From a virus (Duplodnaviria > Caudoviricetes): DNA of 52,020 nucleotides. The stretch's first letter is position 1, and every line of letters begins with the position of its first letter. Shown piece after piece: positions 22,030-51,079 of this stretch. A model generated the notes under the pieces. The model was given only the letters and a program-made list of their open reading frames with translations. It was not told the DNA's origin and did no database searches. The stretch is from IMG/VR virus record IMGVR_UViG_3300037706_000027, positions 1 through 52,020 of that record; one strand, 5' to 3'. The position numbers and the translations under genes were made by a program.

Positions 22030-22526
22030 TCTCCCGCGAGACATGGGGCGCAAAGCACGGGCGCGGCAACGTCATGCCGGACCCCGCGCCCAAGTCACTA
22101 ATCGTGATCCACCACGCGGCCAGTCCACACGTCGATTGCGGCGTTGGCCAGGCTCGCGAAATGGAGATCGTCCGGGGCATCGAACGGCACCACGTCGAGA
22201 CGAACGGTTGGGCCGGGATCGGCTACTCGTTTCTCGCGTTCCAGTCGGGGGACGTCTTCGAAGGCCGCGGCTGGGGCCGGGTAGGTGCCCACACACCGGG
22301 CCGGAACTCGACGAGCTACGGCGTATGCCTCGTCATCAACGGGGACCGCCACACGCCAACAGAGGCGGCGCTCGAGGCTGTGCGGCGGCTGGTTGCGGTC
22401 GGGATCGGGGCGAAGTTCATAGCGCCCGGTTTCCGCGTCGGTGCGCACCGGCAATTCAAGGCGACGGACTGCCCCGGCTCGCTCGTGATGGTCACGCTTT
22501 CGGAGATCGGGCCGCTGTTTCCGTGA
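22026..22526 (+). CDS. Endolysin, N-acetylmuramoyl-L-alanine amidase (Amidase_2/PGRP type)
   Basis: ISRETWGA, IVIHH, GIGYSFL, EGRGW, GAHT and HR...TDCPG zinc-ligand motifs. Confidence 0.93.
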   Translation: MISRETWGAKHGRGNVMPDPAPKSLIVIHHAASPHVDCGVGQAREMEIVRGIERHHVETNGWAGIGYSFLAFQSGDVFEGRGWGRVGAHTPGRNSTSYGVCLVINGDRHTPTEAALEAVRRLVAVGIGAKFIAPGFRVGAHRQFKATDCPGSLVMVTLSEIGPLFP

Positions 22527-23661
22527 GTTCCCCGGCTGGGCGCGTTAGGGGCTCCGGACCTTTCCGTCCCGCGCGGCGCCGCAAGGCGTGGAAGATGGGC
22601 CTCCGGCCGGGGATTTGTTTCCACCGCAGCACAGCGACGGGTACGAGCATCGGCAGATAATTGATTCGGAGGATCGGCGCGAACAGAAGTGACGCCAGCA
22701 GAACAACCCCCATCGAATCCTCGACGGACCACTTGCGCGTCAGAGCCGCGACCAGGATCGGGATGCCGGTTCCGGCCAGCAGCATCCAAGCACGCAGAAC
22801 AGCCGGCAACGAGCCGCCATCGTAGGACCAGAGGCCCAGCGATTCTGTCAGGGACACGAGCGCCATCGAGAGGCTGAGATTGCCGGGCGCGCGGATCGGC
22901 AGCTCTATGCCGGCGAGACTCCAGCGCTGAACGGTTCCGGTCCAGAACTCACCCTGCGATAGCGATGGGAAAACGGCCCCGAGGTACGTCAGCGACTCAC
23001 GGACCGAAGCGGCGGGCCCCAACGAGATGAGGCACACGACACCGGCCACGACAATAGCCGCCGCGGATCCAATCACGGTCCGGCGGTCACGTATCGCGAA
23101 TAACCATACCCAGAGCGTCGTCAGCTTAATCAGAGTCGAGGCGGCCAGTGCTGCCCCGCGCGCGCGACCGGCGTGCGCGAACGCCAGTGCCACGAGCGAC
23201 CATACGATGAGGTCGGCATTGCCCATATTCCAAGCAGGGATCGTGCCGGGCACGAAGAAAAGCAGCGACCCCGCAATCAATGTGGGGCCGAACTCGTAGC
23301 GTCCCACAGCGATTCGGGCCACGACGGCGGCAAAGACCCAGTAGGCCGAACTGAGAAGGACCAGCCAGGCCCGAGCGAATCCGAGGTAGCCAAGTGGACC
23401 GAGTGGCCGAAGGGCGGCGGCGAGGGGCGGCGGGTAGATGTAGGTGGGGTCGGACCGGAAGACGCCGGGCTCGGGCAGCGGATGATAAATGCTGTGGCCA
23501 GCCTGCGGGTTGGTTGCCGCGCGGAAGAATACCGCGGTATCCCGGTCGGCGTCCGTCCGCTGCCACTGCACAGCGAACCCGATGGCGAATACCAGCGGGA
23601 AGATGAGGGAGTAGGTGCGGACGACGAAAGCCAGGCGACCGTTCAGTCTTCGCGTCCGCAA
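22492..23661 (-). CDS. GT87-like (DUF2029) GT-C membrane glycosyltransferase
   Basis: DTAVFFRA, YIYPPP, GNADL and IKL motifs; many TM helices; start uncertain. Confidence 0.8.
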   Translation of the reverse strand: MRTRRLNGRLAFVVRTYSLIFPLVFAIGFAVQWQRTDADRDTAVFFRAATNPQAGHSIYHPLPEPGVFRSDPTYIYPPPLAAALRPLGPLGYLGFARAWLVLLSSAYWVFAAVVARIAVGRYEFGPTLIAGSLLFFVPGTIPAWNMGNADLIVWSLVALAFAHAGRARGAALAASTLIKLTTLWVWLFAIRDRRTVIGSAAAIVVAGVVCLISLGPAASVRESLTYLGAVFPSLSQGEFWTGTVQRWSLAGIELPIRAPGNLSLSMALVSLTESLGLWSYDGGSLPAVLRAWMLLAGTGIPILVAALTRKWSVEDSMGVVLLASLLFAPILRINYLPMLVPVAVLRWKQIPGRRPIFHALRRRAGRKGPEPLTRPAGELTETAARSPKA

Positions 23662-23993: not shown

Positions 23994-24488
23994 TCACTTT
24001 GAGCCCTCGGGTCGGCGCTTCCCAGGTGCTCGCCCTGAACTCCCTGACGCCTGTTTGCGAGGTGGAGTCGCTTCCTCTCGGCGCACTAGATCGACCACCT
24101 GCAATCCATCACGAGCCTGGCCGGTCCGGGGATCTACTGCGGGCGTCGTCGGAGTAGGTCGGCCGGATTCGCGCACGCCGTCCACAATATCGGCGACGAG
24201 CAGAAACGCCCGCTGCGCTTCCGTGGCCTCAGGCGGCATCTCTGGGGTGCCCTCGCCAGTCAGCAGCCAATGCGGATTGACACCGTACTCGCGCACGATC
24301 GCTGTGAGCACTTTCCCGCTCGGGACGGCGCTCCCTTTGTACTGATCGAGCGCTCCTTGCGGCGATAAGCCGACGCGCCGGCCGTACTCAGATGCGTTCG
24401 TATGCTCGAACGTGTCCACTATCCATGCGATCCGTGACCGCCACGTTCGCCATGAACGTGTCCCTTGCGTTTTCAAGTTATCTCGCAT
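23994..24488 (-). CDS. CI-like immunity repressor (HTH)
   Basis: ASEYGRRVGLS helix-turn-helix and YGVNPHWLLTGEG signature; divergent from cro-like gene. Confidence 0.8.
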   Translation of the reverse strand: MRDNLKTQGTRSWRTWRSRIAWIVDTFEHTNASEYGRRVGLSPQGALDQYKGSAVPSGKVLTAIVREYGVNPHWLLTGEGTPEMPPEATEAQRAFLLVADIVDGVRESGRPTPTTPAVDPRTGQARDGLQVVDLVRREEATPPRKQASGSSGRAPGKRRPEGSK

Positions 24489-24491
24489 AGG

Positions 24492-24561
24492 TTCAAGTCT
24501 ACTGGAACTCACGTTTTTTCACTCGGTTCCAACATTATGCGATGATTCAAGCAGAATTGAA
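24492..24561. promoter_or_regulatory. Operator palindromes between repressor and cro-like gene
   Basis: TTCAA-gtctac-TGGAA (24492-24507) and TTCAA-gcagaa-TTGAA (24546-24561). Confidence 0.7.
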
Positions 24562-24790
24562 AGCGGCACGTCTCGCCGCGGGCAAGAGCCTGGCTGAAAT
24601 CGGCAAGGTGCTGGGCCTTTCGTACGAGGGCTACCGCAACAAAGAGACGGCCACGACACCTGTGACCGGCACCGAACTCGCACGGCTAGCGGACTACTAC
24701 CAGAGGCCGCTGGACGTGCTGTTCCCGTCGTACCGGCCGACTCTGGGCGAGGTCTCGCTGGCGCGCCATCTGGCCTCCAACCGCGGATAG
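24542..24790 (+). CDS. Cro-like XRE HTH regulator
   Basis: LKAARLAAGKSLAEIGKVLGLSYEGYRNKE. Confidence 0.85.
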   Translation: MIQAELKAARLAAGKSLAEIGKVLGLSYEGYRNKETATTPVTGTELARLADYYQRPLDVLFPSYRPTLGEVSLARHLASNRG

Positions 24791-24793
24791 GGA

Positions 24794-24847
24794 TTCAATA
24801 GTACTTGACAGGTTTCAAGTACGCCGGTAGATTCAAGGCAAGTTGAG
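24794..24847 (+). promoter_or_regulatory. Sigma70-type early promoter overlapped by two operators
   Basis: TTGACA(24805)-17 nt-TAGATT(24828); TTCAA-N6-TTGAC (24794-24809) and TTCAA-N6-TTGAG (24832-24847). Confidence 0.8.
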
Positions 24848-24876
24848 TGTTTCACGTGAAACCTGAAGGCGGGCCA

Positions 24877-25221
24877 GTGACCAGCAACCAATCAACCGGA
24901 ATCGACCCCTGCCGCGAGTGCGACGGCCCCGCTGTCGGCTTCTTCGACCCGAACACCGGCGAAGAGCACGAGCCCGGCGAGGTCCGGTTTCTCCTGCACA
25001 CGGGCGGCCTCAGCCGCTGGTCCGGCTGGATCGAGCAGTCCGGCGAGGCTGCATACCGTGAGACCGCGGCGCGCCACGAGATCGCAATCCTTGGCTCACA
25101 GTGTCGCGACTCAGACGCCATCCCGCTCTGCGCCCGCCACCGCGACGAACTGACGCGAATCCCGACCGCCGAAGACTGGCGCGACGTGCGGACGGATCTC
25201 GCGTTCGACTGGTCACGATGA
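24877..25221 (+). CDS. Hypothetical early protein (Cys-containing)
   Basis: First ORF after the early promoter; ATGA coupling to next gene. Confidence 0.55.
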   Translation: MTSNQSTGIDPCRECDGPAVGFFDPNTGEEHEPGEVRFLLHTGGLSRWSGWIEQSGEAAYRETAARHEIAILGSQCRDSDAIPLCARHRDELTRIPTAEDWRDVRTDLAFDWSR

Positions 25222-25562
25222 ATACGAACCGTCTGTCTCTGACCAATGCGGAATGGCAGTGGGGTGAGCCGATCTATATGGGAGGCTACGAGCCGCCCGA
25301 CGCTGACGGCGCGTTCGCCCGACCCGTGCGCTCGCTTCTTAGCGCTGTTGGCGAGCGAGTCATCGTCTACCACGAAGCATACTGGTTGCCGCCCCAAGAA
25401 GTCGTGGACCTGATCGCCGCCGCTCCCGCGCTCCTGAAAGCGTGCGAGGAGATGTTGTCGGAGATCCGCGCCTATCAGGGCGAAGCGGAACACGAGCCCG
25501 GCCCAGTACAGGACTGGTGCAATATGCTTAGTGCCGCCATCGCCAAAGCACGAGGCGGCTGA
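25218..25562 (+). CDS. Hypothetical early protein
   Basis: LIAAAPALLKAC...AAIAKARG, a common phage small-protein motif. Confidence 0.7.
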   Translation: MNTNRLSLTNAEWQWGEPIYMGGYEPPDADGAFARPVRSLLSAVGERVIVYHEAYWLPPQEVVDLIAAAPALLKACEEMLSEIRAYQGEAEHEPGPVQDWCNMLSAAIAKARGG

Positions 25563-25982
25563 ATGTCCTCCGCAACCTTCGTCGAACGCGGCATAACCTG
25601 CCCAGCGTGCAACAGCACCGGCCGCTTTCTCGCGCTCGAAACGACACGCGCCGCGCTTAACCACATCACGATCGTCCGCGCTCGCTGTCTTTCGTGCGGC
25701 ATGATCGTGCTCCACGATTGCGCGACCAGCACGACGACGATTGCCCCGCAACGGCCGGTATCGCTGCTGGGGCTGGCCACTCGGGCCACGGAGCCGCCAC
25801 CTCCGGAAGGGGACGGGAACAACCTTCGTGGTCCGGGTGCGCCAGTCTGCCCGAAATGCGAGCGGCCGGGGCCGTACTACTCCGGCGGCGATGTGCGTGA
25901 GAATGGCGCGGTCATCGTTCGAACGATTGTGTGCCAGTGCGGCACGCGGCTCTCGTATGACGGCGTTACGGTGGAGGGCTGA
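25563..25982 (+). CDS. Double zinc-ribbon protein
   Basis: CPAC/CLSC and CPKC/CQC pairs separated by a Pro-rich linker. Confidence 0.6.
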   Translation: MSSATFVERGITCPACNSTGRFLALETTRAALNHITIVRARCLSCGMIVLHDCATSTTTIAPQRPVSLLGLATRATEPPPPEGDGNNLRGPGAPVCPKCERPGPYYSGGDVRENGAVIVRTIVCQCGTRLSYDGVTVEG

Positions 25983-26201
25983 ATGCGCCGCTACCACGTC
26001 ATTACGGTTCGGCCTTCCGCGCCCGACGATCGCGAGGTCTCGATAAGGGTGCTGCGGAGGCTTCGTCCGGGTTTGCGCACACCGGAGCAAGTACTTCTGA
26101 ATTCGGGCGCGGACACGGACATCATCACGCGGACCGCGGCGGCGATCCTGCTGCGGAGCCTCCGACGGTTTCGTCGCCGGATAACGAGAGAGGCTTAGGC
26201 A

Positions 26202-26582
26202 ATGAACAAGCACATGCGGTACATCGTCGAAGAATGGTTGCCGACGTTGGATGATGCGGCGCTCCAGAGGATACAGGACGCGCCGGCGGACCAGTGGCTG
26301 CACGGCGCTTTCAATGAGCGGGGCACGTACCTCGCACGAGAGTACCACGGGCCGACGTGCCTGATGGGCCACGCATACGGTCCGTGGATGGCCGCCCAGA
26401 TATACGTGCAGGATGACACGATCGCGCGTCACTTCGACATACTGTGCCGCACCGTTCCCTTGGAAGCATGGTTGAAGGGTATCGCGGATCGCGAAGTTAC
26501 AGACGCGATCCGTGCCGAAGCACGCCGACTGCTGGCCACTCGACGGCTCGCCATTGACGTTCCTGTCGCGTCCGTGGTCTGA
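26202..26582 (+). CDS. Hypothetical protein
   Basis: GAGG RBS; CLMGH motif. Confidence 0.6.
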   Translation: MNKHMRYIVEEWLPTLDDAALQRIQDAPADQWLHGAFNERGTYLAREYHGPTCLMGHAYGPWMAAQIYVQDDTIARHFDILCRTVPLEAWLKGIADREVTDAIRAEARRLLATRRLAIDVPVASVV

Positions 26583-26764
26583 ATGCTCGCCCTCTACCGT
26601 TCGCTCCGACTGCTGTACGCGCCGCGTAAGGCCATGCGTCTGGCACTGATAGCGACGGCACCCGGTTACTTCCCCGTCCCGATGGAGCGCGGGCAGCACT
26701 GTGCGCAGGATCGCGCTCACTCGAACGAGGCCGGTCATGCGATGAAGTATGGCCGGAGAGTCGC

Positions 26765-27268
26765 ATGAAGAGGAAGCAATATTCCATCCCAGTTGCGTTG
26801 CCTATCAACGGGCACACCGACGAGGACAACCGGCTTGTCGCCGATGTGATGCCGAAAGCGGCGAAGCTGTACGAACTGCCGGGACTCGATGCCAGCGGCA
26901 TCAGCCGGATGAAGAACGGCCAATACAACGTGTTCGCACGGCTCCGGCTGGTCGTATACGCGATCAGACTTGCCGGTCACGAGCGTTCGTTTGGTGAGCG
27001 TATCCGGGGCTGGTTCGATGCGCTGATCGAGGAGTGCTGGCCGGTCCGTGAGATCGACGATACGCAAGCCGAGTGCGATGGGGCTGCTGCGGACGCGCAC
27101 GAGGACGCGCTCTTCGCGTTGTGGAAGAACGGTCGGGTTTCGGATGCGGAGTACGAGCACGCCCTGAGCTTGGAAGTCGATGCAAAACGGACGCGCCTGA
27201 TATCGCTGCGTTATCGAATCGCGTCAATGGAGCAACCGGGTGTATGGCGGCGGCGGGCGAATGCCTGA
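26765..27268 (+). CDS. Hypothetical protein, possible transcriptional regulator
   Basis: GGAG RBS; LDASGISRMKNG is HTH-like; stops 6 nt before the pentamer array. Confidence 0.55.
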   Translation: MKRKQYSIPVALPINGHTDEDNRLVADVMPKAAKLYELPGLDASGISRMKNGQYNVFARLRLVVYAIRLAGHERSFGERIRGWFDALIEECWPVREIDDTQAECDGAAADAHEDALFALWKNGRVSDAEYEHALSLEVDAKRTRLISLRYRIASMEQPGVWRRRANA

Positions 27269-27274
27269 CTCTGA

Positions 27275-27696
27275 GGCGAGGCTAGGCGAGGTGCGGCTCG
27301 GCGTGGTGAGGTGCGGCGAGGCCAGCTCTGGCGAGGCGCGGATTGGTGCGGCGAGATGCGACGAGGTGAGGCGTGCCTTGGATAGTCCTGGTCGGGTTGG
27401 GCGGGTTCGGATTGGGTGGGGCAAGGCTTGGCTTTGGCGAGGTCGGGCGAGGCGCGGTCTGGTCGGGTCTGGTGGGGTCTGGTTTGGTGCGGCGAGGTCC
27501 AGTTCTGGCTGGGTCCGTCGAGGCGAGGTGAGTCTTGCTCGGGTGTGGTGAGGCTTGTTAGGCCAAGGTGAGGTTTGGTTTGCTAAGGCTAGGCGTGGTC
27601 GGTCATGGTCTGGCAGGGATAGGCGGGGCAAGGTCCGGTCGGGTTAGGCTTGGCTGGACAGGGCTGGGCGAGGTCGGTCAAGGCATGGTTTGGCTT
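27275..27696 (+). repeat. GGY-NN pentamer array (84 units); candidate guide ncRNA
   Basis: Manual parse: G at position 1 in 84/84 units, pyrimidine at position 3 in 81/84, exact GGY in 64/84, positions 4-5 variable; only two 1-nt insertions (27435, 27501). Confidence 0.92.
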
Positions 27697-27722
27697 CTTC
27701 CAATAACGAGAGGTTAACGGAC

Positions 27723-28361
27723 ATGGTGACGAAGGCGAGCACGAACCGGCTGGGGGCGATCGGTCCCGAATCAACCAACGGCGGCGCGGTTGAGATCGAG
27801 CACTCGATGCCGTACATGGTGGACTTCGAGTTGACGGGAATCGCCGACATGCTCTTCCACCGATGGAACGTTGAGGCGGTCGAGGAAAAGGCGAAGGCCG
27901 CGAAGGGATCGAAGGCCAAGAAGACGGACAACATCGAGAGCTACGTCTACCGGAACGACGCGGGCGAGATTTGCCTACCCGGCGAGTACGTTCGTCAGGC
28001 TGTTATCACCGCTGCGAAGTTTCGTCAGGATCCGCGCAGCCCGCGCAAGTCTGCAATGGATCTGTTCAAGGCCGCCGTCATCAGCCTGACGCCGCTTGCG
28101 ACGCTCGGTATCTCCGAGTGGGATTACGAGCACAAGTGCCGCGTCGTGGTCCAACGCAACGGAATCACGCGCGTCCGGCCCGCGATCAAGGAAGGATGGA
28201 AGGCGGAGTTTCAGTTCCTGATCACTCTGCCTGAGTACATCTCGCCGGCCATCTTGCAGGATGTTCTCGTCAATGCCGGGCGGCTGGTCGGACTTGCCGA
28301 CTCACGTCCGACGTATGGCCGTTTCTCGGTGACCAAGTTTGCCGTCGTCGTGAACGCATGA
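27723..28361 (+). CDS. Stand-alone Cas7/RAMP-like (RRM-fold) protein linked to the pentamer array
   Basis: VDFELTG beta1, ICLPGEYVRQAV, beta-hairpin RVVVQRNGITRVRP, WKAEFQF, C-terminal Gly loop AGRLVGLADSRPTYGRF; GAGAGG RBS at 27708. Confidence 0.75.
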   Translation: MVTKASTNRLGAIGPESTNGGAVEIEHSMPYMVDFELTGIADMLFHRWNVEAVEEKAKAAKGSKAKKTDNIESYVYRNDAGEICLPGEYVRQAVITAAKFRQDPRSPRKSAMDLFKAAVISLTPLATLGISEWDYEHKCRVVVQRNGITRVRPAIKEGWKAEFQFLITLPEYISPAILQDVLVNAGRLVGLADSRPTYGRFSVTKFAVVVNA

Positions 28362-28440
28362 CCGCGCTGGAGGCGCAACTGTCCGGGACGCGGACGCTGC
28401 TGGTGTCGGTCCGGCAACGGATCGCGGCGCGGGTGGAAAG

Positions 28441-28926
28441 ATGAGATGGCGCGTCTCGCACCGAGCGGACCCCGTAGCTGTAGCGATTGCGGACCGTCAC
28501 TACAACCGACAGAAGCCGGGCACGCCGCAGTTTGTGCCGCCCGGCCGGTGTCTCGTTCTGCTCGCCGACGATGCGCTCTGGACAACGTCGTGGCCCTTCG
28601 CGGAGTACGTCAGGCACGAATGGGCGGGCGCGTGGGTCAACTCGCTATTTCGCAACGAGGGTCCGCACCTGTCGAGCCAACTCATCCGCGAAGCCGTGGC
28701 GGCCACACGCTGGAAGTGGGGCGATCCGCCAGAACTCGGAATGGTGACGTTTGTAGATGCGGGCAAGGTGCGACACAAGCGCGATCCGGGCCGGTGCTAC
28801 CTGCGGGCGGGATTCTCGCGAGTCGGCGAAACGAAGGGCGGGCTTGTCGCGTTGCAACTTCTGCCGGTGGACATGCCGTCAGCGGAAGTGCCGGGCGACG
28901 GTCAAGAAAGTGTGTTATGCGCATGA
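28441..28926 (+). CDS. Mom-like GNAT-fold DNA modification protein
   Basis: ADRHY, FRNEG..SSQLI, TFVD and PGRCYLRAGF motifs. Confidence 0.6.
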   Translation: MRWRVSHRADPVAVAIADRHYNRQKPGTPQFVPPGRCLVLLADDALWTTSWPFAEYVRHEWAGAWVNSLFRNEGPHLSSQLIREAVAATRWKWGDPPELGMVTFVDAGKVRHKRDPGRCYLRAGFSRVGETKGGLVALQLLPVDMPSAEVPGDGQESVLCA

Positions 28927-29084
28927 CCGAGCCCACCACGCTATTCGACGTCCTCTTCTGGATCGCCGTGTTCATTGGCTGCTTAGTCGGGCTCATGCTG
29001 TGGATGCTGTTCCGCGGACCGCCAGTCGAGCCGTTCCCGGATGCAACAGAGGAAGCGGCGAAGAAGCGGCTCGGCGGAGAGTGA
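28923..29084 (+). CDS. Small single-TM protein
   Basis: VLFWIAVFIGCLVGLMLWMLF. Confidence 0.5.
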   Translation: MTEPTTLFDVLFWIAVFIGCLVGLMLWMLFRGPPVEPFPDATEEAAKKRLGGE

Positions 29085-29629
29085 GGCGACTATGAAACCC
29101 TACGGTGTGACCGCAGACCTTCGCGTAGTGCGACCGACACGCACCGAGGATGCTATCTGGGAAGCTGTCGAAGCCGCGATCGATGAGGGGCTGACGCCAG
29201 AGCAATTCAAGGCCGAGGCGGCACAGGCTTGGTCCGAGATACTGCACGAGAGGGCAAGGTCTGCCGCCCGCGTGTTGACGGCCTAACGGACAATGAGGCG
29301 ACCCATGCTGACAATCGGACTGATTGCGATACTCGCCATTGCGTACGCGATCGCGTCGGCAACGGACGATCCGAACGAGCGGGCGGAAGAGGATTCCGGC
29401 CTCGCGAAACTCAGGAGTAATGGGCTGATATGATCAACTGGAACTATACGACCGGCGAATGCCAGACGAACGCGGAAGCCGCCGTCGTCGAAGCGCTGCA
29501 AGAGATCGCCGAAAAATTGGACCGGCTGTGCGAGATCGAGGAACGACGCGCTGAGACATCTGACGGCATTCACAAGTTGATGTCAGAGGCGCAGTACGAA
29601 TCACCGATACAGACGCCGGAGACGTTGCG

Positions 29630-34763: not shown

Positions 34764-35135
34764 ATGGCACGCAACGGAACCGCGCCGCGACTGCTGGTAT
34801 CGACGCCGATCGAGGACCGGCTGCAGGCGCTGGAGGATCAGGCCGCCGTGCAGCAGCAGTGGAGCGGTGAACACTCGCCAACGGCTGCTACAATCCGGAT
34901 GTGCGTGCGTGAGATGCGGGGGGCCATTGCGGAAGCCGAGGAAATCTGGCGCACGACAGCAGAAACTTCTGAGCTTACCCGCTGGAGCACGGACACGCTG
35001 CTGCGTCACGCGAAGAACGTGACCGCCGGTGGAACGCCGGCACACGCCTGGCGGGGCGTCCGCGTTCGCATGAGCGGGACAGGCTACCTCTGGATGGTTT
35101 CCACGGTGCCGGCCAAGCCGGCTAAGACCGGCTGA
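34764..35135 (+). CDS. Putative excisionase / recombination directionality factor
   Basis: TTAETSELTRWSTDTLLRH winged-HTH-like pattern; coupled to integrase. Confidence 0.55.
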   Translation: MARNGTAPRLLVSTPIEDRLQALEDQAAVQQQWSGEHSPTAATIRMCVREMRGAIAEAEEIWRTTAETSELTRWSTDTLLRHAKNVTAGGTPAHAWRGVRVRMSGTGYLWMVSTVPAKPAKTG

Positions 35136-36439
35136 TGGGCCGCCGACCAAAGAACGTCAACGAGTCGGGCCGCTGGTCGGTCCAGGTCGGTGAGCATGGC
35201 AGCATCGTGCGCATCCGCGAGCGCGAACCGAAGGGCCGGCTATTGCTTCTCTGGGGTGATGCCGGTACGGGCAAGCGGATTCAGCGATACGCGCAAGTCG
35301 AGACGGTCCGCAAGTCGAACGGTAAGGTCGATGGCGCGCTCGAGGAAATGGCGCTCAGGGAAGCGCGGGACCTGGCCGCGCGTCTCCGCATCGCGCGCGA
35401 GACGGAGCAGATCGAGCCGGCGCGCATCACGCTCGCGCAGGGTTTCGCCCGCTTCCACGATCCGCGCAAGGGCGCATTGCCGGCGAGCAAGTCAGCGCGG
35501 AAGCACCATGCGGCGGCACGCGCGTTCTGGTGCGACCGGCTGGGCGAGGGCAAGCCGTGGAACGCGATCCTCCCCGCGCAGATCGATTCGGCGCTCAAAG
35601 TGCTCGTCGAGGGCGGCAAGATCCCGACCGCGGAAAAGCATGTCCGGACCCTGCGCACGGTCACCCGCTGGCTACGTGACCGCGCGGGGTTCGATGGGCT
35701 CAAGGATCCGACGCGGCATGTCGATCTACGTAAGCTCCGCGAAGGCCACGAGCCGCGCCGCCCGCGATACACCCGGGTGGAGATCGATGCGCTGCTTGCC
35801 GTCGCAGGCGAGATCGACCAGCGCTTCCGGTTCGCGCTCATCTGGGCGGACGATACCGGCGCCCGATCCGCGGCCCTCTACCGTGCCCGACGGAGCGACG
35901 TCGATTGCGCGCTCGACGTGCCGCCCAAGCCGGAGGACGCGCCGCACGGCTGGTGCCGCCTGCCGCCCCTCAAAGGCCAGAGGCCGGCGCTCGTGTACCT
36001 GACGGAGCTTCAGCGGCAGGTGTTGGACGAAGCGACGGGAGAGCGGTGGAACGGTGCCCGCATGGAGCCGGGCTATCTGTCGGACCTCGAGCAGCGCTGG
36101 CAGGAGAAGGGGATCGACTACCCGCTGATCCCGGGCGGTCCCTGGCCACGCTCAGGCGTTTTTACGGCCGCGCGGGAGATCAGCAAGGGCGCGCTGGACC
36201 GTTGGCTGATCGAGGCGGAGAAGAAAGCGGGCGTGCCTCGCATCGCGCGCCGCGGTTGGCACGGCATTCGGCGCTCCTGGACGGACTACGTGCTCGATGA
36301 GGAGGGCATGGACACCGTCGTCGCGGCCGGCGCATGGAGCGACGAGGACATGCCGCGCCACGTGTACGCCGAGCGCATCCGTCACCAGCATCTCCGGCGC
36401 TCTAGGGAGGCGCAGGAACGGAAGCGGGGACCGCGATGA
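35135..36439 (+). CDS. int: Tyrosine integrase
   Basis: Catalytic R (TGAR), K (LKG), HxxR (WHGIRR), W (GAWS) and Y (HVY). Confidence 0.88.
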   Translation: MGRRPKNVNESGRWSVQVGEHGSIVRIREREPKGRLLLLWGDAGTGKRIQRYAQVETVRKSNGKVDGALEEMALREARDLAARLRIARETEQIEPARITLAQGFARFHDPRKGALPASKSARKHHAAARAFWCDRLGEGKPWNAILPAQIDSALKVLVEGGKIPTAEKHVRTLRTVTRWLRDRAGFDGLKDPTRHVDLRKLREGHEPRRPRYTRVEIDALLAVAGEIDQRFRFALIWADDTGARSAALYRARRSDVDCALDVPPKPEDAPHGWCRLPPLKGQRPALVYLTELQRQVLDEATGERWNGARMEPGYLSDLEQRWQEKGIDYPLIPGGPWPRSGVFTAAREISKGALDRWLIEAEKKAGVPRIARRGWHGIRRSWTDYVLDEEGMDTVVAAGAWSDEDMPRHVYAERIRHQHLRRSREAQERKRGPR

Positions 36440-36836: not shown

Positions 36837-37925
36837 ATGACGCCGTATTACGACGCGGGCGGCCTGACCGTTCACTGCGCCGATGCACTCGATCTGATGC
36901 GCTCGATCCCGTCGAGTAGCGTCGCGCTTGTAGCCACGGACCCGCCGTTCTTCGGCGTCAAGGATGAGGCGTGGGATAACGCATGGCCGTTCGCCGCGCA
37001 CTACCTGACTTGGCTCGACAGCCTGACGATCGAATGGCAGCGCGTGCTCAAGCCGAACGGCTCGCTGTACGTGTTCGCATCGCCCGAGATGTCGGCGCGC
37101 GTTGAATGCCTGATCGGCGAGCGGTTCAACGTGTTGAATAACATCCGGTGGGCGAAGCCGCCATACAGCACGAAGGCCGAGATGTTCGACAAGGAAACGT
37201 GCCGCTCGTACTTCCCCGCATCCGAGTCGATCATCTTCGCCGAGCACTTCGGCGCTGACAACATGGCCAAGGGTGAGGCGGGTTACGCGGCCAAGTGCGA
37301 CGAATTGCGGGGCTTCGTGTTCGAGCCGTTGCGGGCGTATCTGTCATCGGAACGTGACCGGGCAGGGATGACGACCGCCGACGTAGCTGAGTCATGGCGC
37401 GTGAAGACGGGTAATTCAAACCGCACCGGCATGGCGGGCCACTGGTTCGAGCGTGTGCAGTGGTCGCTACCGACGCAGGAAAACTACGAATGGTTGCGGG
37501 CGGTCCTGAACGCGCACGCTAACGGTTCAGGCCCAGTCCTGGCGCGGCCGTACGAATACCTTCAGCGCGAATACGAAGACCTGCGTGCTGAGTTCGAAGA
37601 CCTTCGGCGCGAATACGAAGACCTGCGACGTCCCTTCAACGTGACCGCCGACGTTCCCTTTACCGATGTCTGGACGTTCCCGACCGTGAACACCTACCCC
37701 GGCAAGCATCCATGCGAAAAGCCGCTCGCGATGATGGAGCACGTCGTCCGCACGAGCAGCCGGGAAGGCGACATCGTGCTTGATACGTTCTCGGGTTCGG
37801 GAACGACGGCAAGGGCGGCGCTCAACCTTCGACGGCGCGCCATCGTCGGCGATAGCGACATGCACTGGTGCCGGTGGACGGCGGATCGGTGTGCTCAGGA
37901 AGTCCTGAACTTGGAGCCCGCATGA
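36837..37925 (+). CDS. N6-adenine/N4-cytosine DNA methyltransferase, beta class
   Basis: DPPF precedes HPCEKP and DTFSGSG; internal HTH-like insert and YEDLR heptads. Confidence 0.92.
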   Translation: MTPYYDAGGLTVHCADALDLMRSIPSSSVALVATDPPFFGVKDEAWDNAWPFAAHYLTWLDSLTIEWQRVLKPNGSLYVFASPEMSARVECLIGERFNVLNNIRWAKPPYSTKAEMFDKETCRSYFPASESIIFAEHFGADNMAKGEAGYAAKCDELRGFVFEPLRAYLSSERDRAGMTTADVAESWRVKTGNSNRTGMAGHWFERVQWSLPTQENYEWLRAVLNAHANGSGPVLARPYEYLQREYEDLRAEFEDLRREYEDLRRPFNVTADVPFTDVWTFPTVNTYPGKHPCEKPLAMMEHVVRTSSREGDIVLDTFSGSGTTARAALNLRRRAIVGDSDMHWCRWTADRCAQEVLNLEPA

Positions 37926-39730: not shown

Positions 39731-40630
39731 ATGGCCAAGAAATCGGAAAGGACCGCGCTCCTGATGGATACCCGCCTTTCCGATACCGCTGTGCGCATAG
39801 GTCTCTACATCGAAAGCTTGGGTCCGGGCCTGCACCGGATCAGCTCTGACGACCTGGCGCGGGTGTGCTTCGGCACGCCGTCCCGAGAAACGGTCACCCG
39901 GTCCCTCCGGGCTCTTCGTATGCACGAGTACATCGAACAGCTTCCGGGTGGGCGTGGTCACCCCGATCGGTTCGCTTTTAGGTCGTCACCCGAGACTACC
40001 CTAAACACGGATAGCACCCGCTGGGAAGACGACCTAAACGCCGATAGGTCGTCACCACAGCATACCCTAAACACGGATAGGTCGTCACCAGGACCATACC
40101 TAAGTGTTTCTCACGCGGGGCGCGCGCGCGGAGACGCGGCTTTTTTGTCTTTAACTAACGATGAAGTAGAAGAAGGGGAACCCCCTATTATCCCCCTTTC
40201 GACCGATGCCGAGAGGGCGCTCAGGCAGCACTCCGACCTGCTCACTGGCTGCCGTGGTGCGCTTCGGGATTACCTCCGCCAGTGCGTCGCCCCAGAGAAG
40301 CAGTACGCCTATGTCCAGACGGTTGCCGGCTGGCTGAACGACCTCGAGCCGGTGTTCCGGCTCCCTGACGGATCCAGTCTCCACGATCGGGGCGAGCGGA
40401 CGAAGGCGCTAGGAAACGCACTCAACCTGCTCGCGGCCTCAGAAGAACGGATGATGACCAGGCCTATCGGAGATCCGGACAATCTCCGCACAAAACTGAA
40501 CGTCCAACTGAGGAAGAGATCCAATGGCGAAAGAAATGGCAGTTACGACCGAGCAGCTACAGGAGCGTCTTCTTCAGAGGCGGCAGGACCTGGGCGTGGC
40601 AAGTACGCCGGCCTCGATGACCACAGTTGA
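39731..40630 (+). CDS. Replication initiator (lambda O-like architecture)
   Basis: N-terminal wHTH (SRETVTRSLRALRMHEYI), internal DNA repeats, upstream of a DnaC-like gene. Confidence 0.75.
   Translation: MAKKSERTALLMDTRLSDTAVRIGLYIESLGPGLHRISSDDLARVCFGTPSRETVTRSLRALRMHEYIEQLPGGRGHPDRFAFRSSPETTLNTDSTRWEDDLNADRSSPQHTLNTDRSSPGPYLSVSHAGRARGDAAFLSLTNDEVEEGEPPIIPLSTDAERALRQHSDLLTGCRGALRDYLRQCVAPEKQYAYVQTVAGWLNDLEPVFRLPDGSSLHDRGERTKALGNALNLLAASEERMMTRPIGDPDNLRTKLNVQLRKRSNGERNGSYDRAATGASSSEAAGPGRGKYAGLDDHS
39979..40103. repeat. 33-bp iteron-like repeats (probable replication origin)
   Basis: TAGGTCGTCACC at 39979, 40045 and 40078, CCTAAAC/CCTAAG half-sites, AT-rich tract near 40141. Confidence 0.75.
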
Positions 40631-45617: not shown

Positions 45618-45668
45618 GCGGTGGGGTGTATGTGCTGGCGAGAGGGATCGGGGATATGGAGGCGAGGC

Positions 45669-46550
45669 TTGGCTGATTGCTACCTCGTCCGCGGCCATGT
45701 CGGACTCGGCGATAACATTTATCAGCGCCCGTTCGTCCGCCGGATCGCGGAACACGGAGAGTGCTGGCTGCAAACACCGTGGCCTGAACTCTACGAGGAC
45801 ATTCCGGGCGTTCGGTTCGTCCGCATGACCGTCGGCCTCCGCACGCAGGCCAAAAATATCGATCGGCAACCGCATTCGCGGTGGTCGCGCCCACCGGCCG
45901 ATTGCAAGAACGTTCGTCTGCACTACTCTGCCAGGGCCGGGCTTCCTGGACACTTCGCGCAGTTCCGGCAGCGGTTCCCGTTCCCGACGGGTGATCTGCG
46001 GTTCGATCTGCCGGTCACGATTCCCTCATGGGGGCTCTTGACGGACAGGCCCATAGCGTTCGTCCGGCCAGTCACGGAGCGCATCGAGTGGCCCGCGCCG
46101 GCACGTTCGCCGGATCCTGCTTACATCGAGCAGGCTTGCGGGATACTTCGCGATCAGGGCTACCACGTCGTGCTCGTGGCGCACCTCGAGCCGGGCGCGG
46201 AAACTTTGGTTGGAGATCTGCCGCTCCACGATACAGCATTCCTCCACGGAGAACTGGACATCGTGCGCCTGCTCGGCCTGCTCAAGGGCTCCGCGATCGC
46301 CGTGGGTGGTTCCGGCTGGATTGTTCCGGCTGCTCTGGCTGCTGGCGTTCCGCTCGTGCTCATCGGTGGTGGGTGTGGGGCGGTCAACTCGCCAGAATGG
46401 CTGACCGACCCGGCGATGGACACGTCGCGCTTCCTGCCGATCCTGCCGGACAATTATTGCCGGTGCGCGGACCGGTGGCACGATTGCGACAAAAGGATCA
46501 CGGGGTTCGCGGAGAGGTTCGAGGCCGTCATGGGAATGGTGGCGGCATGA
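45669..46550 (+). CDS. GT-B glycosyltransferase, GT9 (heptosyltransferase)-like
   Basis: GLGDNIYQRP, IAVGGSGWIVPAALAAGVP; GGAGG RBS before TTG. Confidence 0.72.
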   Translation: MADCYLVRGHVGLGDNIYQRPFVRRIAEHGECWLQTPWPELYEDIPGVRFVRMTVGLRTQAKNIDRQPHSRWSRPPADCKNVRLHYSARAGLPGHFAQFRQRFPFPTGDLRFDLPVTIPSWGLLTDRPIAFVRPVTERIEWPAPARSPDPAYIEQACGILRDQGYHVVLVAHLEPGAETLVGDLPLHDTAFLHGELDIVRLLGLLKGSAIAVGGSGWIVPAALAAGVPLVLIGGGCGAVNSPEWLTDPAMDTSRFLPILPDNYCRCADRWHDCDKRITGFAERFEAVMGMVAA

Positions 46551-47146
46551 CCGACTTTCCGGTTCACGTCGCCGCATGGGAACACCAGTGTGAGCATTCC
46601 GGCCCCATCGTCGAGGCTGCTGAACTGCCCACCATTCGACCGCGCGGTCGCTCGCCCGTCTGGATCGACGCCCTGGTCGGCTGTTACCCGTATCTGGACT
46701 CCGCCTGGCAGAGCTGGCAGGACAAGGTCGATGTTATCGATATGGGCGGTGATGTATCACGAGGCCGAATCGTTCCTGCCGCCATTCAGTGGACCAAGGA
46801 GCGCGGCAAGGACATGCGCGATGTTTCGTCGATACCGCGCGAGTCGATGGACTTGGTGTTCGCGTCACACAGCATCGAGCACATCGAGTCCCTTGAAGTT
46901 CCGGCGATGCTGACTGCGTGGATCAGTCTGCTCCGTTCCAGTGGCGAGATGTACATTGCTGGTCCGCACCGCTGCTCCGAACGCTGGTCGCCGATCCTGA
47001 ATCCCGCCGTGCGCGATGTTCATCTCTGGGCGCCTACCGCAGCGTGCATCGGTAATTATCTTATTGCGCAAGGCATGCGGCTGTTGGCGGTCGATACGTG
47101 CATCACAGAGCGGCACATGTGGTATGTCTGGCTGAGGAAACTATGA
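46547..47146 (+). CDS. Class I SAM-dependent methyltransferase
   Basis: VIDMGG, DLVFASHSIEH, LRSSGEMYI. Confidence 0.78.
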   Translation: MTDFPVHVAAWEHQCEHSGPIVEAAELPTIRPRGRSPVWIDALVGCYPYLDSAWQSWQDKVDVIDMGGDVSRGRIVPAAIQWTKERGKDMRDVSSIPRESMDLVFASHSIEHIESLEVPAMLTAWISLLRSSGEMYIAGPHRCSERWSPILNPAVRDVHLWAPTAACIGNYLIAQGMRLLAVDTCITERHMWYVWLRKL

Positions 47147-47574
47147 CACGACCCCAATACGATGCGCTGAGCCCACGAGAGAAAGACGCACTGGTTGCGG
47201 AACACGTCATGGGCTGGCGCGTTCGGAAAAGCAAGTACGGTCACTGGGTCGTCAGCGTACCGGGCGAGGATAGCAGCCGTGAGGATGGCTACGGCCTTGA
47301 CCAGTTCGATGGCATGACGGGACGGAACATCGAACGTCAGTGGTGGGACGAGATCGACGATGTCCCGGCTTACACGTCAGACATCAGCGCAGCATGGAAA
47401 GTAGTGGATAAGATGCTGATCGCTGGGGCCGACGCAAGAATGATGAGCATGCTGGATGGTGGCTGGCGCACGGCGTTCATGACCACGCAAGAACTACATG
47501 AGGCCGCTGCCGACTCTGCACCTGAAAGCATTTGCGCGGCCGCTCTGATAGCGAGAGGAGTACTGACACCGTGA
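47143..47574 (+). CDS. Phage ABA-sandwich (BC1872-like) protein
   Basis: DALVAEHVMGW, PAYTSDISAAWKVV, APESICAAAL. Confidence 0.72.
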   Translation: MTRPQYDALSPREKDALVAEHVMGWRVRKSKYGHWVVSVPGEDSSREDGYGLDQFDGMTGRNIERQWWDEIDDVPAYTSDISAAWKVVDKMLIAGADARMMSMLDGGWRTAFMTTQELHEAAADSAPESICAAALIARGVLTP

Positions 47575-47587
47575 GGCCGGACGCCAA

Positions 47588-48139
47588 ATGAAACGCGCCT
47601 TCGTCGTCGTCGGCCCCGAGTCCAGCGGCAATCGCCTCCTCGCCGCGCTCCTGGTCCGCGCCGGTTGCTTCGGCCACGGTTGGGAAGCCGAAAGCGATCT
47701 GCCGCTGCACCACACGCCGGCCGTTGTGACACGGAGTTACCCGCACGGCAACGAGTGGCCGGATCTCCGGGACATCTACCGGACGCTTCGGGACCGTGGC
47801 TACATGGTGCAGGCGCTCGTGACATGCCGCGATCTGTTCTGCACGATCGAATCACAGCATGCGTCCCAGCATCATCCGCGCGAGCTTGCGGCGGGCAACG
47901 TGACGCGGGCTATCGGGTCGATCTTCGCGCAACTGGCGGATCTCAACTGCGCGTGGACGCTGGTTCCGTACGAGTCGCTGATCCTGCACCCGATCGACGC
48001 CGTGCACCGGCTGCTCGAACGGCTGGACTTGCCCGTCGGCAATCTCGGGTCAGCGTTCGTAGTCGATGGCACGGAACACGAAACGATCAGCGACGGGAAC
48101 TGGAAACATTTCGACGTCAAATATTTGCCGGAGGAATAA
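47588..48139 (+). CDS. Sulfotransferase-like P-loop protein
   Basis: VVGPESSGNRLL (5'-PSB-like), LVTCRD..S (3'-PB-like), VPYESLILHP. Confidence 0.65.
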   Translation: MKRAFVVVGPESSGNRLLAALLVRAGCFGHGWEAESDLPLHHTPAVVTRSYPHGNEWPDLRDIYRTLRDRGYMVQALVTCRDLFCTIESQHASQHHPRELAAGNVTRAIGSIFAQLADLNCAWTLVPYESLILHPIDAVHRLLERLDLPVGNLGSAFVVDGTEHETISDGNWKHFDVKYLPEE

Positions 48140-48142
48140 AAA

Positions 48143-48580
48143 ATGGGGAAAGACCTTGGGAGCACAGGTGTGCCGGAATGGATCGTGAACAATTTGGGCG
48201 AACTGGGTGTGCGTGTTGGCGGCCGGTTCTTCTTCCTGTACAAAGGAAGGAGCTTGGAGTACCGCAACGACGGTGACCCAGATGAACGCCTCATGCGGTA
48301 CCGGCCAGTGGGCAAAAGAGAGTTCGGGGAGACATGCCAACCGCTTGGCTTGGACCGCCTGACGGATCGATATGACGAGGAAACTGGCGGAGAGTGGAAA
48401 ATCTTGCCGCTCGTCCCGCATGGCCCCGCCTTCACTTGGGACATGGTGGAAATGCTGCGCCTCAAGGCAGAAGATCCCGAAGATGACTGGCAAAACCTTC
48501 TGATCGAGACGGCAAACGTGATCGAATCGCTACTACAAACGCAACGACGCGTGGGCAACGAAACACGCTCGGAGGGATGA
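48143..48580 (+). CDS. Hypothetical protein
   Basis: GGAGG RBS; WIVNNLGELGV, FFLYKGRS, RPVGKREFGE. Confidence 0.65.
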   Translation: MGKDLGSTGVPEWIVNNLGELGVRVGGRFFFLYKGRSLEYRNDGDPDERLMRYRPVGKREFGETCQPLGLDRLTDRYDEETGGEWKILPLVPHGPAFTWDMVEMLRLKAEDPEDDWQNLLIETANVIESLLQTQRRVGNETRSEG

Positions 48581-50166
48581 TGCTGATTGCTCGCTGTGTA
48601 TGCGGTGGCGACGGGTTTCGAGATCCCGAGATCCTGAACGGGCTTCCGATACGAACATGTTCGTCCTGCGGCGTCATGCATCAGGCGGTGCCGATGACGC
48701 CAGACGAATACGTCCGCTACTACGAGACCGAATATCACAGCGAGGTGCAGCATGCCCTCGGCCGGCAGAGCTACGAGGAACGCTATGACCACGATCGCAT
48801 GGTTGCCCGGCTCCGGCTCGATGATTACGGCCCCCTTGTGGGTCGGCTGCTGGACATAGGTAGCGGTAACAATGCCTTCGTGGACGAGTGCATCGCGGAC
48901 GCGGTCGACGCGGTTGGCTTGGACTTGGGCGGCCCGCTTGATCCGGCCAGGACATACATCGGCGCGCTGAAGGATCAGAACTTCCCGACCGGCCATTTCA
49001 GCACGATCACGATGCACGATGTGCTGGAGCACGTTCCCGACCCAGTTGCGCTGCTCACCGAATGCCGCCGCATCATGGCAGACGATGGACGGCTGATCGT
49101 GGACTTCCCCGCGTTCTGGGCGTCCGAGGGTGTCCACCACTGGCGGCCGACGCAACATCTCTGGATGCTCACATTGGAACAGCTTGAGCGCCTCCTGTAC
49201 GACACGGGCTTTAACACGTTCGAGACACACATCCCGATTCCGTCCAAGATCGTGATCCACGCGAAGCCGAAGCCCGTCGTCCGAAAACGCGCGCTGGTGC
49301 TCTCCGGCATAGGCGACATCTACTGGACCGCCGTCGGGATGCCGGGATTCTTCCGCGCCGAACGAGTCGAGGCCCCACCGGATGTATTCGTGTGGAACTT
49401 CGACGAGCGTCCGCGCAGTCTCGAATACGTCGAGCGGCTTCCGTTCTGCCGGGCCGCCGGTTACGTCGAGCACGACAAGCACACGCCGGAGTTCCACGAA
49501 GCGTATATAAAAAACGGTCGCAGCGTGTTTCCGGGTTACTTGGGATACGACTGGTTCCTGAGCGCTAACGGGAAGCTGCGCAACGGCACGACGCTGGCAG
49601 ACACGTTCCCGCACGGCACCGACTGGTATCCGCCGCTGTTCAGATCGCTCCGGGAACGCGCATTCCAAGCCGAGTACGCCAATCTCGCGCCCTACGTCCT
49701 CGCCTACGTTTCGAATCACGGCATGTTCACCCGATGGGTCCGTGCATGGAACGAGCACCGTCTGGCCGGAATGCTGACAAAGATCCAGCGCGAAGCCAAC
49801 GTGCGGATCGTGTTCACCGGCTCCGGGTGGGACAAGCCTTTCGCCGATCGCGTCGCCCGTCTCGTGCCGAATGCGCTGAGCCTGGTCGGCGAAACGGACA
49901 TGGATCAGCTCTTCGGCCTCATGCGCTCCGCTGCGGGCTTCGTCGGCCTCTGCGGGGGCAATACCATCGTGGCAACGTCGCTTCGCGTCCCGACCGTGAT
50001 GCTATGGTCGAGCTTCTTCCAGAATCAGACGTTCTTCCCAAACTGCGTCCCGCCCGACTCGGTCGGGAACTGGTATGAGCCGTTCGTCGTCGAGCGGTCG
50101 CACCCGGATCAGGCGGCAAACGCGATGATCAAGATGCTCAGAGCGAGACAAGAGGAGGCGGCATGA
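48577..50166 (+). CDS. Fusion of zinc-ribbon/SAM methyltransferase and GT9-like glycosyltransferase
   Basis: LLDIGSG and HDVLEHVPDP; then SGIGDIYW, SLVGETDMDQL, LRVPTVML. Confidence 0.8.
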   Translation: MMLIARCVCGGDGFRDPEILNGLPIRTCSSCGVMHQAVPMTPDEYVRYYETEYHSEVQHALGRQSYEERYDHDRMVARLRLDDYGPLVGRLLDIGSGNNAFVDECIADAVDAVGLDLGGPLDPARTYIGALKDQNFPTGHFSTITMHDVLEHVPDPVALLTECRRIMADDGRLIVDFPAFWASEGVHHWRPTQHLWMLTLEQLERLLYDTGFNTFETHIPIPSKIVIHAKPKPVVRKRALVLSGIGDIYWTAVGMPGFFRAERVEAPPDVFVWNFDERPRSLEYVERLPFCRAAGYVEHDKHTPEFHEAYIKNGRSVFPGYLGYDWFLSANGKLRNGTTLADTFPHGTDWYPPLFRSLRERAFQAEYANLAPYVLAYVSNHGMFTRWVRAWNEHRLAGMLTKIQREANVRIVFTGSGWDKPFADRVARLVPNALSLVGETDMDQLFGLMRSAAGFVGLCGGNTIVATSLRVPTVMLWSSFFQNQTFFPNCVPPDSVGNWYEPFVVERSHPDQAANAMIKMLRARQEEAA

Positions 50167-50495
50167 TGTTCACGGCTGACGAGGTCCAACACATTCACGA
50201 TGCATACAAGCTGACCGTAGATCGCCAGCAGAATGAGATCGGTCGTCTACGGTCCAGGGTATCCGAGGTCGAAGCGGAGCGAGATAAGATGTTCGATTCC
50301 GCCGTTGCCTGCGGGGTGCAGCTGGCCTCGCAGGAGAACTTCGGCACCGCGTCAGTTACAGTCAGCGTTACGATCGCGTCAACGTTGCTACTGTCGGTTC
50401 CGTCTCCGGACCAACTGTATGCGCATATCGTGAATGGCTTGTACGAACAATTGAAGCGTAGGTCGATCAAATTTGATCATTTGGAATCACCATGA
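50163..50495 (+). CDS. Hypothetical coiled-coil protein
   Basis: Coupled ORF with RBS. Confidence 0.55.
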   Translation: MMFTADEVQHIHDAYKLTVDRQQNEIGRLRSRVSEVEAERDKMFDSAVACGVQLASQENFGTASVTVSVTIASTLLLSVPSPDQLYAHIVNGLYEQLKRRSIKFDHLESP

Positions 50496-51079
50496 CCCAC
50501 GCCCTAATCCTCGGCGGCGCTGATTGCCTCTGGTCCGATCTCGACCAGCTCCGCGAACTCGCTGGCGAATGGACTGGCCTCGTGATCGCAACCAATATGG
50601 CGGGCGTCCACTACCCCGGCCGTGTGGACCACTGGGTGACGCGGCATCCGAACTTCATGTACGAGGGCCGGTTTCCGTTTGAATCCTCGCCGTCGTGGAT
50701 GGAACAGCGTGCGGAACGAGGCGGCAATACCGACATGGTGACGTGGAGTCACAAGACGGGATGGCCTACTCGCATGGTCGAGGACTGGGATGGCAGTACT
50801 GGGCTAACGGCGGTGACCGTGGCGGTCGAACTCGATGTCCTCGGAACACTCTGTGGGCTTCCGATGGACGTGCGCGGTCATTTCGACAACGGGAAGTCTC
50901 GCCGCGGCCGAGTCTGGCCGAAGGCGTTGGGCTACCAGAAGCATTGGCTCGCTGTCATGGACAGGATCAAGCCACGGCTGCGGTCGTTCAGCGGGTGGAC
51001 GGCAGAGCAATTCGGCAAGCCGGATGTGGAGTGGTTTCAGATGGCGGGCATTCCTGAACCGGATTGGGACAAGGGGTGA
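50492..51079 (+). CDS. Rossmann-like protein resembling DUF115/Maf or sialyltransferase-like domains
   Basis: ALILGGA, VIATN, DHWVTRHP, GSTGL, LCGLPMD pattern. Confidence 0.5.
   Translation: MTHALILGGADCLWSDLDQLRELAGEWTGLVIATNMAGVHYPGRVDHWVTRHPNFMYEGRFPFESSPSWMEQRAERGGNTDMVTWSHKTGWPTRMVEDWDGSTGLTAVTVAVELDVLGTLCGLPMDVRGHFDNGKSRRGRVWPKALGYQKHWLAVMDRIKPRLRSFSGWTAEQFGKPDVEWFQMAGIPEPDWDKG

Follow-up and report, generated by a model that had tools for sequence, protein, structure and literature searches.

A probable phage VIPR locus with a long GGY/NN array ahead of a Cas7-like gene

Introduction

What is the role of a long array of five-base repeats that stands directly ahead of a Cas7-like gene in the early region of a phage? 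The question is raised by the virus record IMGVR_UViG_3300037706_000027 (Duplodnaviria; Caudoviricetes), which was analysed over its entire length of 52,020 nucleotides (nt) and is called the window below. The array consists of pentamers, each made of a conserved GGY triplet (Y, C or T) and a variable dinucleotide (NN), and the gene behind it encodes a RAMP protein. An initial annotation of this DNA, made from its letters alone, had pointed to a viral system named VIPR with such an architecture. This system indeed exists; described recently, it binds DNA in a programmable way and is very compact (bioRxiv 10.64898/2026.04.26.720920; 10.64898/2026.04.26.720927). We conclude that the locus is very probably a phage VIPR system, in which the vipr gene lies behind an array that likely provides guide RNA, with the silencing of rival-phage DNA without cutting as its predicted function. 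The assignment rests on the array itself, on homology of the gene product to the Vipr protein of Escherichia phage SUSP1, on the linkage of gene and array throughout the family and on a code with a 1-nt skip in the arrays of relatives.

Results

A recount unit by unit agreed with the initial annotation in that the array (27275-27696, plus strand) measures 422 nt, comprises 84 pentamers and ends 26 nt ahead of the ATG (27723) of a gene for 212 amino acids (aa) on the same strand. It starts 6 nt past the stop of the preceding open reading frame (ORF, 26765-27268). The first position of the unit is G in 83/84 units, the second is G in 68/84 and the third is C or T in 81/84, so that 64 units carry a perfect GGY; positions 4-5 use 15 of the 16 possible dinucleotides. 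The register had been described as almost perfectly kept. In-phase blocks with varying NN are indeed present, but two slips interrupt them and 20 of the 84 units are imperfect. Both slips are +1 shifts caused by a single additional T, at 27435 and at 27506, and they divide the array into blocks of 32 units (27275-27434), 14 units (27436-27505) and 38 units (27507-27696). Matched spans in relatives cover roughly 10-14 units, and by this measure the blocks likely hold 2-3 guides, one guide and about three guides, respectively. The densest 20-unit span contains 16 in-phase GGY triplets; 2000 shuffles of the array never gave more than 11, and 50 shuffles of the window never more than 8. In a scan of the rest of the window, the in-phase score did not exceed 7 on either strand. 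A few 10-nt words are repeated within the array. The argument that a period of five is incompatible with coding did not hold: open frames of 103 aa (plus strand) and 135 aa (minus strand) overlap the array, but of 105 related loci each frame matches only one, and there it matches the array of that locus.

In run X2, which belongs to a different study, a 272-nt contig corresponds to 27489-27747 with one difference; this part of the array therefore does not stem from misassembly. A third study provides a contig that agrees with 27794-28444 apart from 30 differences. A further contig (run X4) joins position 26825 of a stretch corresponding to 26702-26825 to array-like sequence (27470 in the window); the join is weak, its short side having 28 letters, and suggests a relative whose array comes after the start of the upstream ORF. 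Between array and gene, the 26-nt spacer (27697-27722, plus strand) contains a GAGG ribosome-binding-like site and is too short to accommodate, outside the vipr gene, a pseudoknot tail of the SUSP1 type (about 40 nt). In the window no Rfam family reached the gathering score, and the three matches over 27100-28500 were at chance level; no Rfam ribozyme was found between guides, and no linker within the array is longer than one base.

The vipr gene (27723-28361, plus strand) encodes a single-RRM RAMP protein with a thumb (strands 135-155) and a G-loop (about residues 186-200), and belongs to a clade of 6737 database proteins. The three motifs on which its earlier description as Cas7/RAMP-like was based, LPGEYVRQAV among them, are present in the product. 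This description is upheld by a sequence match to the solved SUSP1 Vipr (PDB 36pp; profile E 7e-10; ~20-30% identical over the aligned stretch) and by a structure comparison, in which the predicted model matches Cas7/Csm3 RAMPs with 6-15% identity in the top rows. According to the SUSP1 report, GGY is read by residues H17, R138, D177, W178 and R179, and mutation of R138 or D177 abolishes silencing (10.64898/2026.04.26.720927). With SUSP1 numbering counted from the sequence alignment and residue roles taken from that report, R152, D193 and R195 align with R138, D177 and R179. H46, an invariant residue beyond the ends of the aligned stretch, may correspond to H17. At the position of W178, Phe is present in 89 and Ser in 25 of 114 proteins.

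The expectation that homologs would also be flanked by GGY arrays was confirmed. A tract on the same strand within 1.5 kb of the gene was found at 94 of the 105 related loci (genomes and IMG/VR), with none on the opposite strand and 0/105 in shuffles, and metagenome loci carry same-strand runs in 76 of 80 cases and opposite-strand runs in none, although near-duplicates among the related loci make these counts overstate independence. Across the 105 loci, arrays follow vipr in 72 cases and precede it in 46. Among 325 contiguous arrays the median length is 19 units, 22 have at least 50 units and four have at least 84; the present array is long, not unique. Three arrays of 132-142 contiguous units exceed it (L237, 598-1326; L049, 4651-5350; L072, 4922-5591). 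In L237, whose protein is 74% identical, the 142 units contain four +1-type slips, and among 34 junctions between closely spaced runs, 30 equal +1 modulo 5. Slips of this kind are thus a recurrent trait of the arrays and no random indels.

Other relatives join their runs differently. A conserved linker of ~85 nt with covarying-looking stems separates the GGY runs in L046 (4698-4970), L047 (2480-2820), L048 and L052 (4863-4947); it has no Rfam match and may be a divergent ribozyme akin to that of published ribozyme arrays. L053 (4858-5600) shows a repeated element of 30-40 nt between runs, and L064 and L090 show short GNRA-like hairpins. Since the linker types differ, several array architectures exist in one protein clade. 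A 63% identical homolog with an upstream GGY array is present in phage DSL-LC04 (OR003939.1, 2965-3582); annotated as 'helix-turn-helix transcriptional regulator', it represents a VIPR under a wrong annotation, and the phage is an isolate.

The initial annotation had also postulated a guide with a non-contiguous code, and such a code was recovered computationally in the clade of this array. Of 227 distinct in-register runs, we compared 190 (11-60 units) in windows of 11 units with all loci and the window, arrays being masked. At a skip of 1 nt, 17 of the 190 runs reached at least 20/22 matching bases; at 0, 2 and 3 skipped bases the numbers were 0, 0 and 1, and 20 rounds in which the unit order was shuffled gave 0-2 runs with this score. 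In a larger set of 311 out of 357 runs, the 1-nt skip yielded 21 and the other skips 0, 2 and 5, four of the five 3-skip hits being guides that match their own unmasked array. The 21 hits collapse to 15 distinct guide-site pairs, as six near-identical guides share one site and two share another. In 14 of these pairs (frames read by eye) the skipped base falls on codon position 3 of what is plausibly a gene; L038 is the exception, and one L073 case is ambiguous. Five target sites are located in vipr and two in RusA-like genes, the RusA neighbour being confirmed by Pfam, and we take the remaining ones, from their peptides, to be a helicase Walker A, an AAA ATPase and a DUF669-like gene. Against its own locus each matching guide scored only 14-18/22. 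As far as sequence matching can tell, the published rule of a 1-nt skip (10.64898/2026.04.26.720920), aligned with the wobble position, holds in the array's clade. In Phycisphaerales elements (L002-L017, L025 and related loci), vipr is flanked by an ATPase/ssDNA-binding pair on one side and by RusA/helicase genes on the other, and the guides match these genes in sister elements, not in their own locus.

The array has no self target above chance in the window. Of the six best matches that 313 foreign runs gave on the window, four were located inside the 639-nt vipr gene, all of them wobble-aligned. The guides of L100 (20/22) and L226 (19/22) are predicted to target the G-loop codons (28289-28324, minus strand) with the skipped base at the wobble position, and both mismatch at the codon of S194. 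Two further predicted sites lie at 27845-27877 (minus strand; L280, 19/22) and 27903-27935 (plus strand; L096, 19/22). A score of 19 is also reached with other skip lengths (1-2 cases each), and the loci of the foreign guides have hardly any gene except vipr in common with the window. Hence vipr carries sites aimed at by rival guides, which does not imply an encounter between those phages and this one. A further report has already described guides directed against vipr genes (10.64898/2026.10.15.759431). If we may guess, Ser194 could be an escape from rival guides.

The gene content of the window reads as that of a temperate tailed phage (siphophage). The best match to the phage among sequencing runs comes from a sediment metagenome, which may be its source. 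Pfam and PHROGs identified terminase, portal, protease, capsid, tape measure and amidase genes as well as exonuclease VIII, a RecT-like protein, integrase, methylase and a DnaC-like loader. A divergent repressor pair occupies 23994-24790, and array and vipr are part of the rightward early region. A sigma-70-like promoter at 24805-24833 (plus strand) is a candidate start of the early operon carrying the array; it is a consensus match only, the sole one in 24300-29500, where 1.2 are expected by chance. No promoter or terminator match was found between the array and the upstream gene. This gene (26765-27268, plus strand, 167 aa) has no family, and because a search returned one 75% relative besides itself, it is not a conserved accessory gene. 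The downstream neighbour (28441-28926, plus strand, 161 aa) belongs to phrog_24928 (unknown function); neither neighbour was found in 185 related loci. RusA, the commonest neighbour in relatives (cluster over 52 of 105 loci, a number that chained matches may have inflated), is not beside vipr here. As the initial annotation had stated, cas genes and a repeat-spacer array were not found: 54 ORFs scanned with Pfam gave no match to cas families (PHROGs was run on 30 ORFs; small ORFs were left out), and the window has no CRISPR-like repeats, the 14-mers occurring three times being of a different kind.

Further features of the phage were observed outside the locus. A GT87 glycosyltransferase gene (22492-23661, minus strand) stands beside the repressor, opposite to the late genes, and is possibly a lysogenic-conversion gene. 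A cluster of methyltransferase and glycosyltransferase-like genes (45621-51079) may be a module for DNA or capsid modification. The integrase gene (35135-36439) lies within the rightward early region, not beside the repressor, and has no relative in IMG/VR or plasmids. Short tandem repeats occur in the methylase gene (37551-37624, period 21) and in a putative replication gene (40032-40103, period 33).

Discussion

At the level of sequence, the locus is what defines VIPR: a minimal locus of a phage or prophage with a RAMP gene and an adjacent GGY/NN tandem repeat of four units or more, but with neither further cas genes nor a CRISPR array. By analogy with SUSP1, Vipr protomers would assemble on the array RNA, one per pentamer, with GGY held by thumb and G-loop and thus hidden from pairing. 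Each NN would then pair with two bases of double-stranded DNA, every third target base being skipped, and the bound complex would block transcription of the target. In this temperate siphophage the array is probably co-transcribed in the early operon and may contain about 6-7 guides of 10-14 units that are joined without tails, some of their boundaries being marked by the +1 slips. The targets would be conserved codons, located in genes that belong to related phages or prophages in the same host and lie outside the scanned sequences.

Apart from the near-duplication among the related loci, several findings weigh against this assignment. The direct match to SUSP1 Vipr is weak and spans the C-terminal two thirds only, and S194 occupies the position of W178, the aromatic residue that stacks on G2. 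No evident 3' tail was seen on the array, whose size is 5-9 times the published 9-16 units. No vap gene was seen beside vipr, and neither neighbour is common to the related loci. Against 185 related loci and one phage record, the array guides reached at best 18/22 (shuffles 18-19) and at best 22/26 (shuffles 20-22). Three scans of IMG/VR with exact 8-unit motifs and their extensions, which covered 24 of the 84 units and exact matches only, gave no target above chance.

A tail-less and accessory-free variant of VIPR is a further proposal, which we put forward tentatively and regard as rather doubtful. Here, one long RNA within the early mRNA would contain 6-7 guides, and a one-base slip would end one Vipr filament and start the next, so that Vipr itself sets the guide ends. 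The change from Phe to Ser in the G-loop would be an escape from rival guides.

It is improbable that the locus is a VIPR system by descent only, with a decaying array or outdated guides that silence nothing at present. The lack of a detected target, the 20 imperfect units out of 84 and the Ser at the W178 position would agree with such decay. However, vipr is intact and retains the tested essential residues, and keeping G1 in 83/84 and Y3 in 81/84 units while NN varies needs selection. The G2 loss of 21% falls within the range of the relatives (mean of Phe carriers 15%), and with no close relative of the phage among the scanned sequences a blank target search is expected.

We likewise see very little room for a mainly cis-acting element, in which Vipr binds along the repeats of the mRNA that encodes it, near the ribosome-binding site, and regulates its own or early-operon expression instead of DNA in trans. 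The end of the array 26 nt before the start codon, the missing promoter or terminator match between array and upstream gene and the absence of both a visible tail and a visible target are compatible with this idea. Yet a binding platform has no need of a variable NN, the arrays of the 105 loci occur on either side of vipr (72 downstream, 46 upstream), and the NN strings of relatives match genes of other elements under a single skip rule. Still, a role in cis and a role in trans can coexist. A degenerate microsatellite or low-complexity coding stretch that adjoins a stray Cas7-like gene by coincidence is hardly credible. The open frames across the array and the few 10-nt words that recur in it might speak for this reading, but it is contradicted by the strand-specific linkage at 94/105 and 76/80 loci and by the skip-1 signal in relatives, and the overlapping frames match other arrays only.

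VIPR itself has already been described, and the locus adds a member and no new kind of system. As a clear example from a large clade, it allows the published skip-one code and the conflict between guides and vipr genes to be extended computationally to distant environmental relatives. It is also a test case for how guides are cut from long tail-less arrays and for Vipr working without an accessory protein. One report mentions 99 VIPR-like array clusters (10.64898/2026.10.21.760802).

The type II VIPR of SUSP1 resembles the locus in its single homologous RAMP gene of ~200 aa, in the same-strand array of GGY/NN pentamers, in being phage-borne, in the equivalents of R138, D177 and R179 and in the wobble-aligned 1-nt-skip code, here seen in the clade. 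In SUSP1 the units are distributed over four separate RNAs, 9-16 units per RNA, and every RNA ends in a conserved, structured pseudoknot tail on its 3' side, whereas the 84 units here are contiguous, show no evident tail and form blocks joined by single bases. W178 is replaced by Ser, and the phage that carries the locus is a temperate siphophage. According to the above report, SUSP1 VIPR needs vap1 in natural infection (10.64898/2026.10.15.759431), a partner of which nothing similar is seen beside vipr here. Lacking separate tailed RNAs, the locus is not type II as described. The long slipped array may instead represent the published 'staggered' vrRNA arrays, for which the legend of fig. S18 states that consecutive guides share a boundary, one beginning where the other ends, with '1 nt overlapping positions' (10.64898/2026.04.26.720920). 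Both are single long arrays with a 1-nt offset, seen here as two +1 slips and in the clade as 30 of 34 junctions, though the legend does not decide whether the overlapping positions equal a +1 slip. The published ribozyme arrays (types I and V) contain hammerhead ribozymes between guides, and types II-VII possess a conserved accessory (vap) gene; the present array differs from the former in having neither a ribozyme nor an inter-guide linker of more than one base. Class 1 CRISPR systems differ, with identities of 6-15% in the top rows and with a cas operon and repeat-spacer array that were not found in the window, and their period of 6 nt contrasts with 5 nt and non-contiguous pairing here. 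What the locus shares with their Cas7/Csm3 proteins, which polymerise on guide RNA, is the fold of RRM, thumb and G-loop that is predicted for Vipr.
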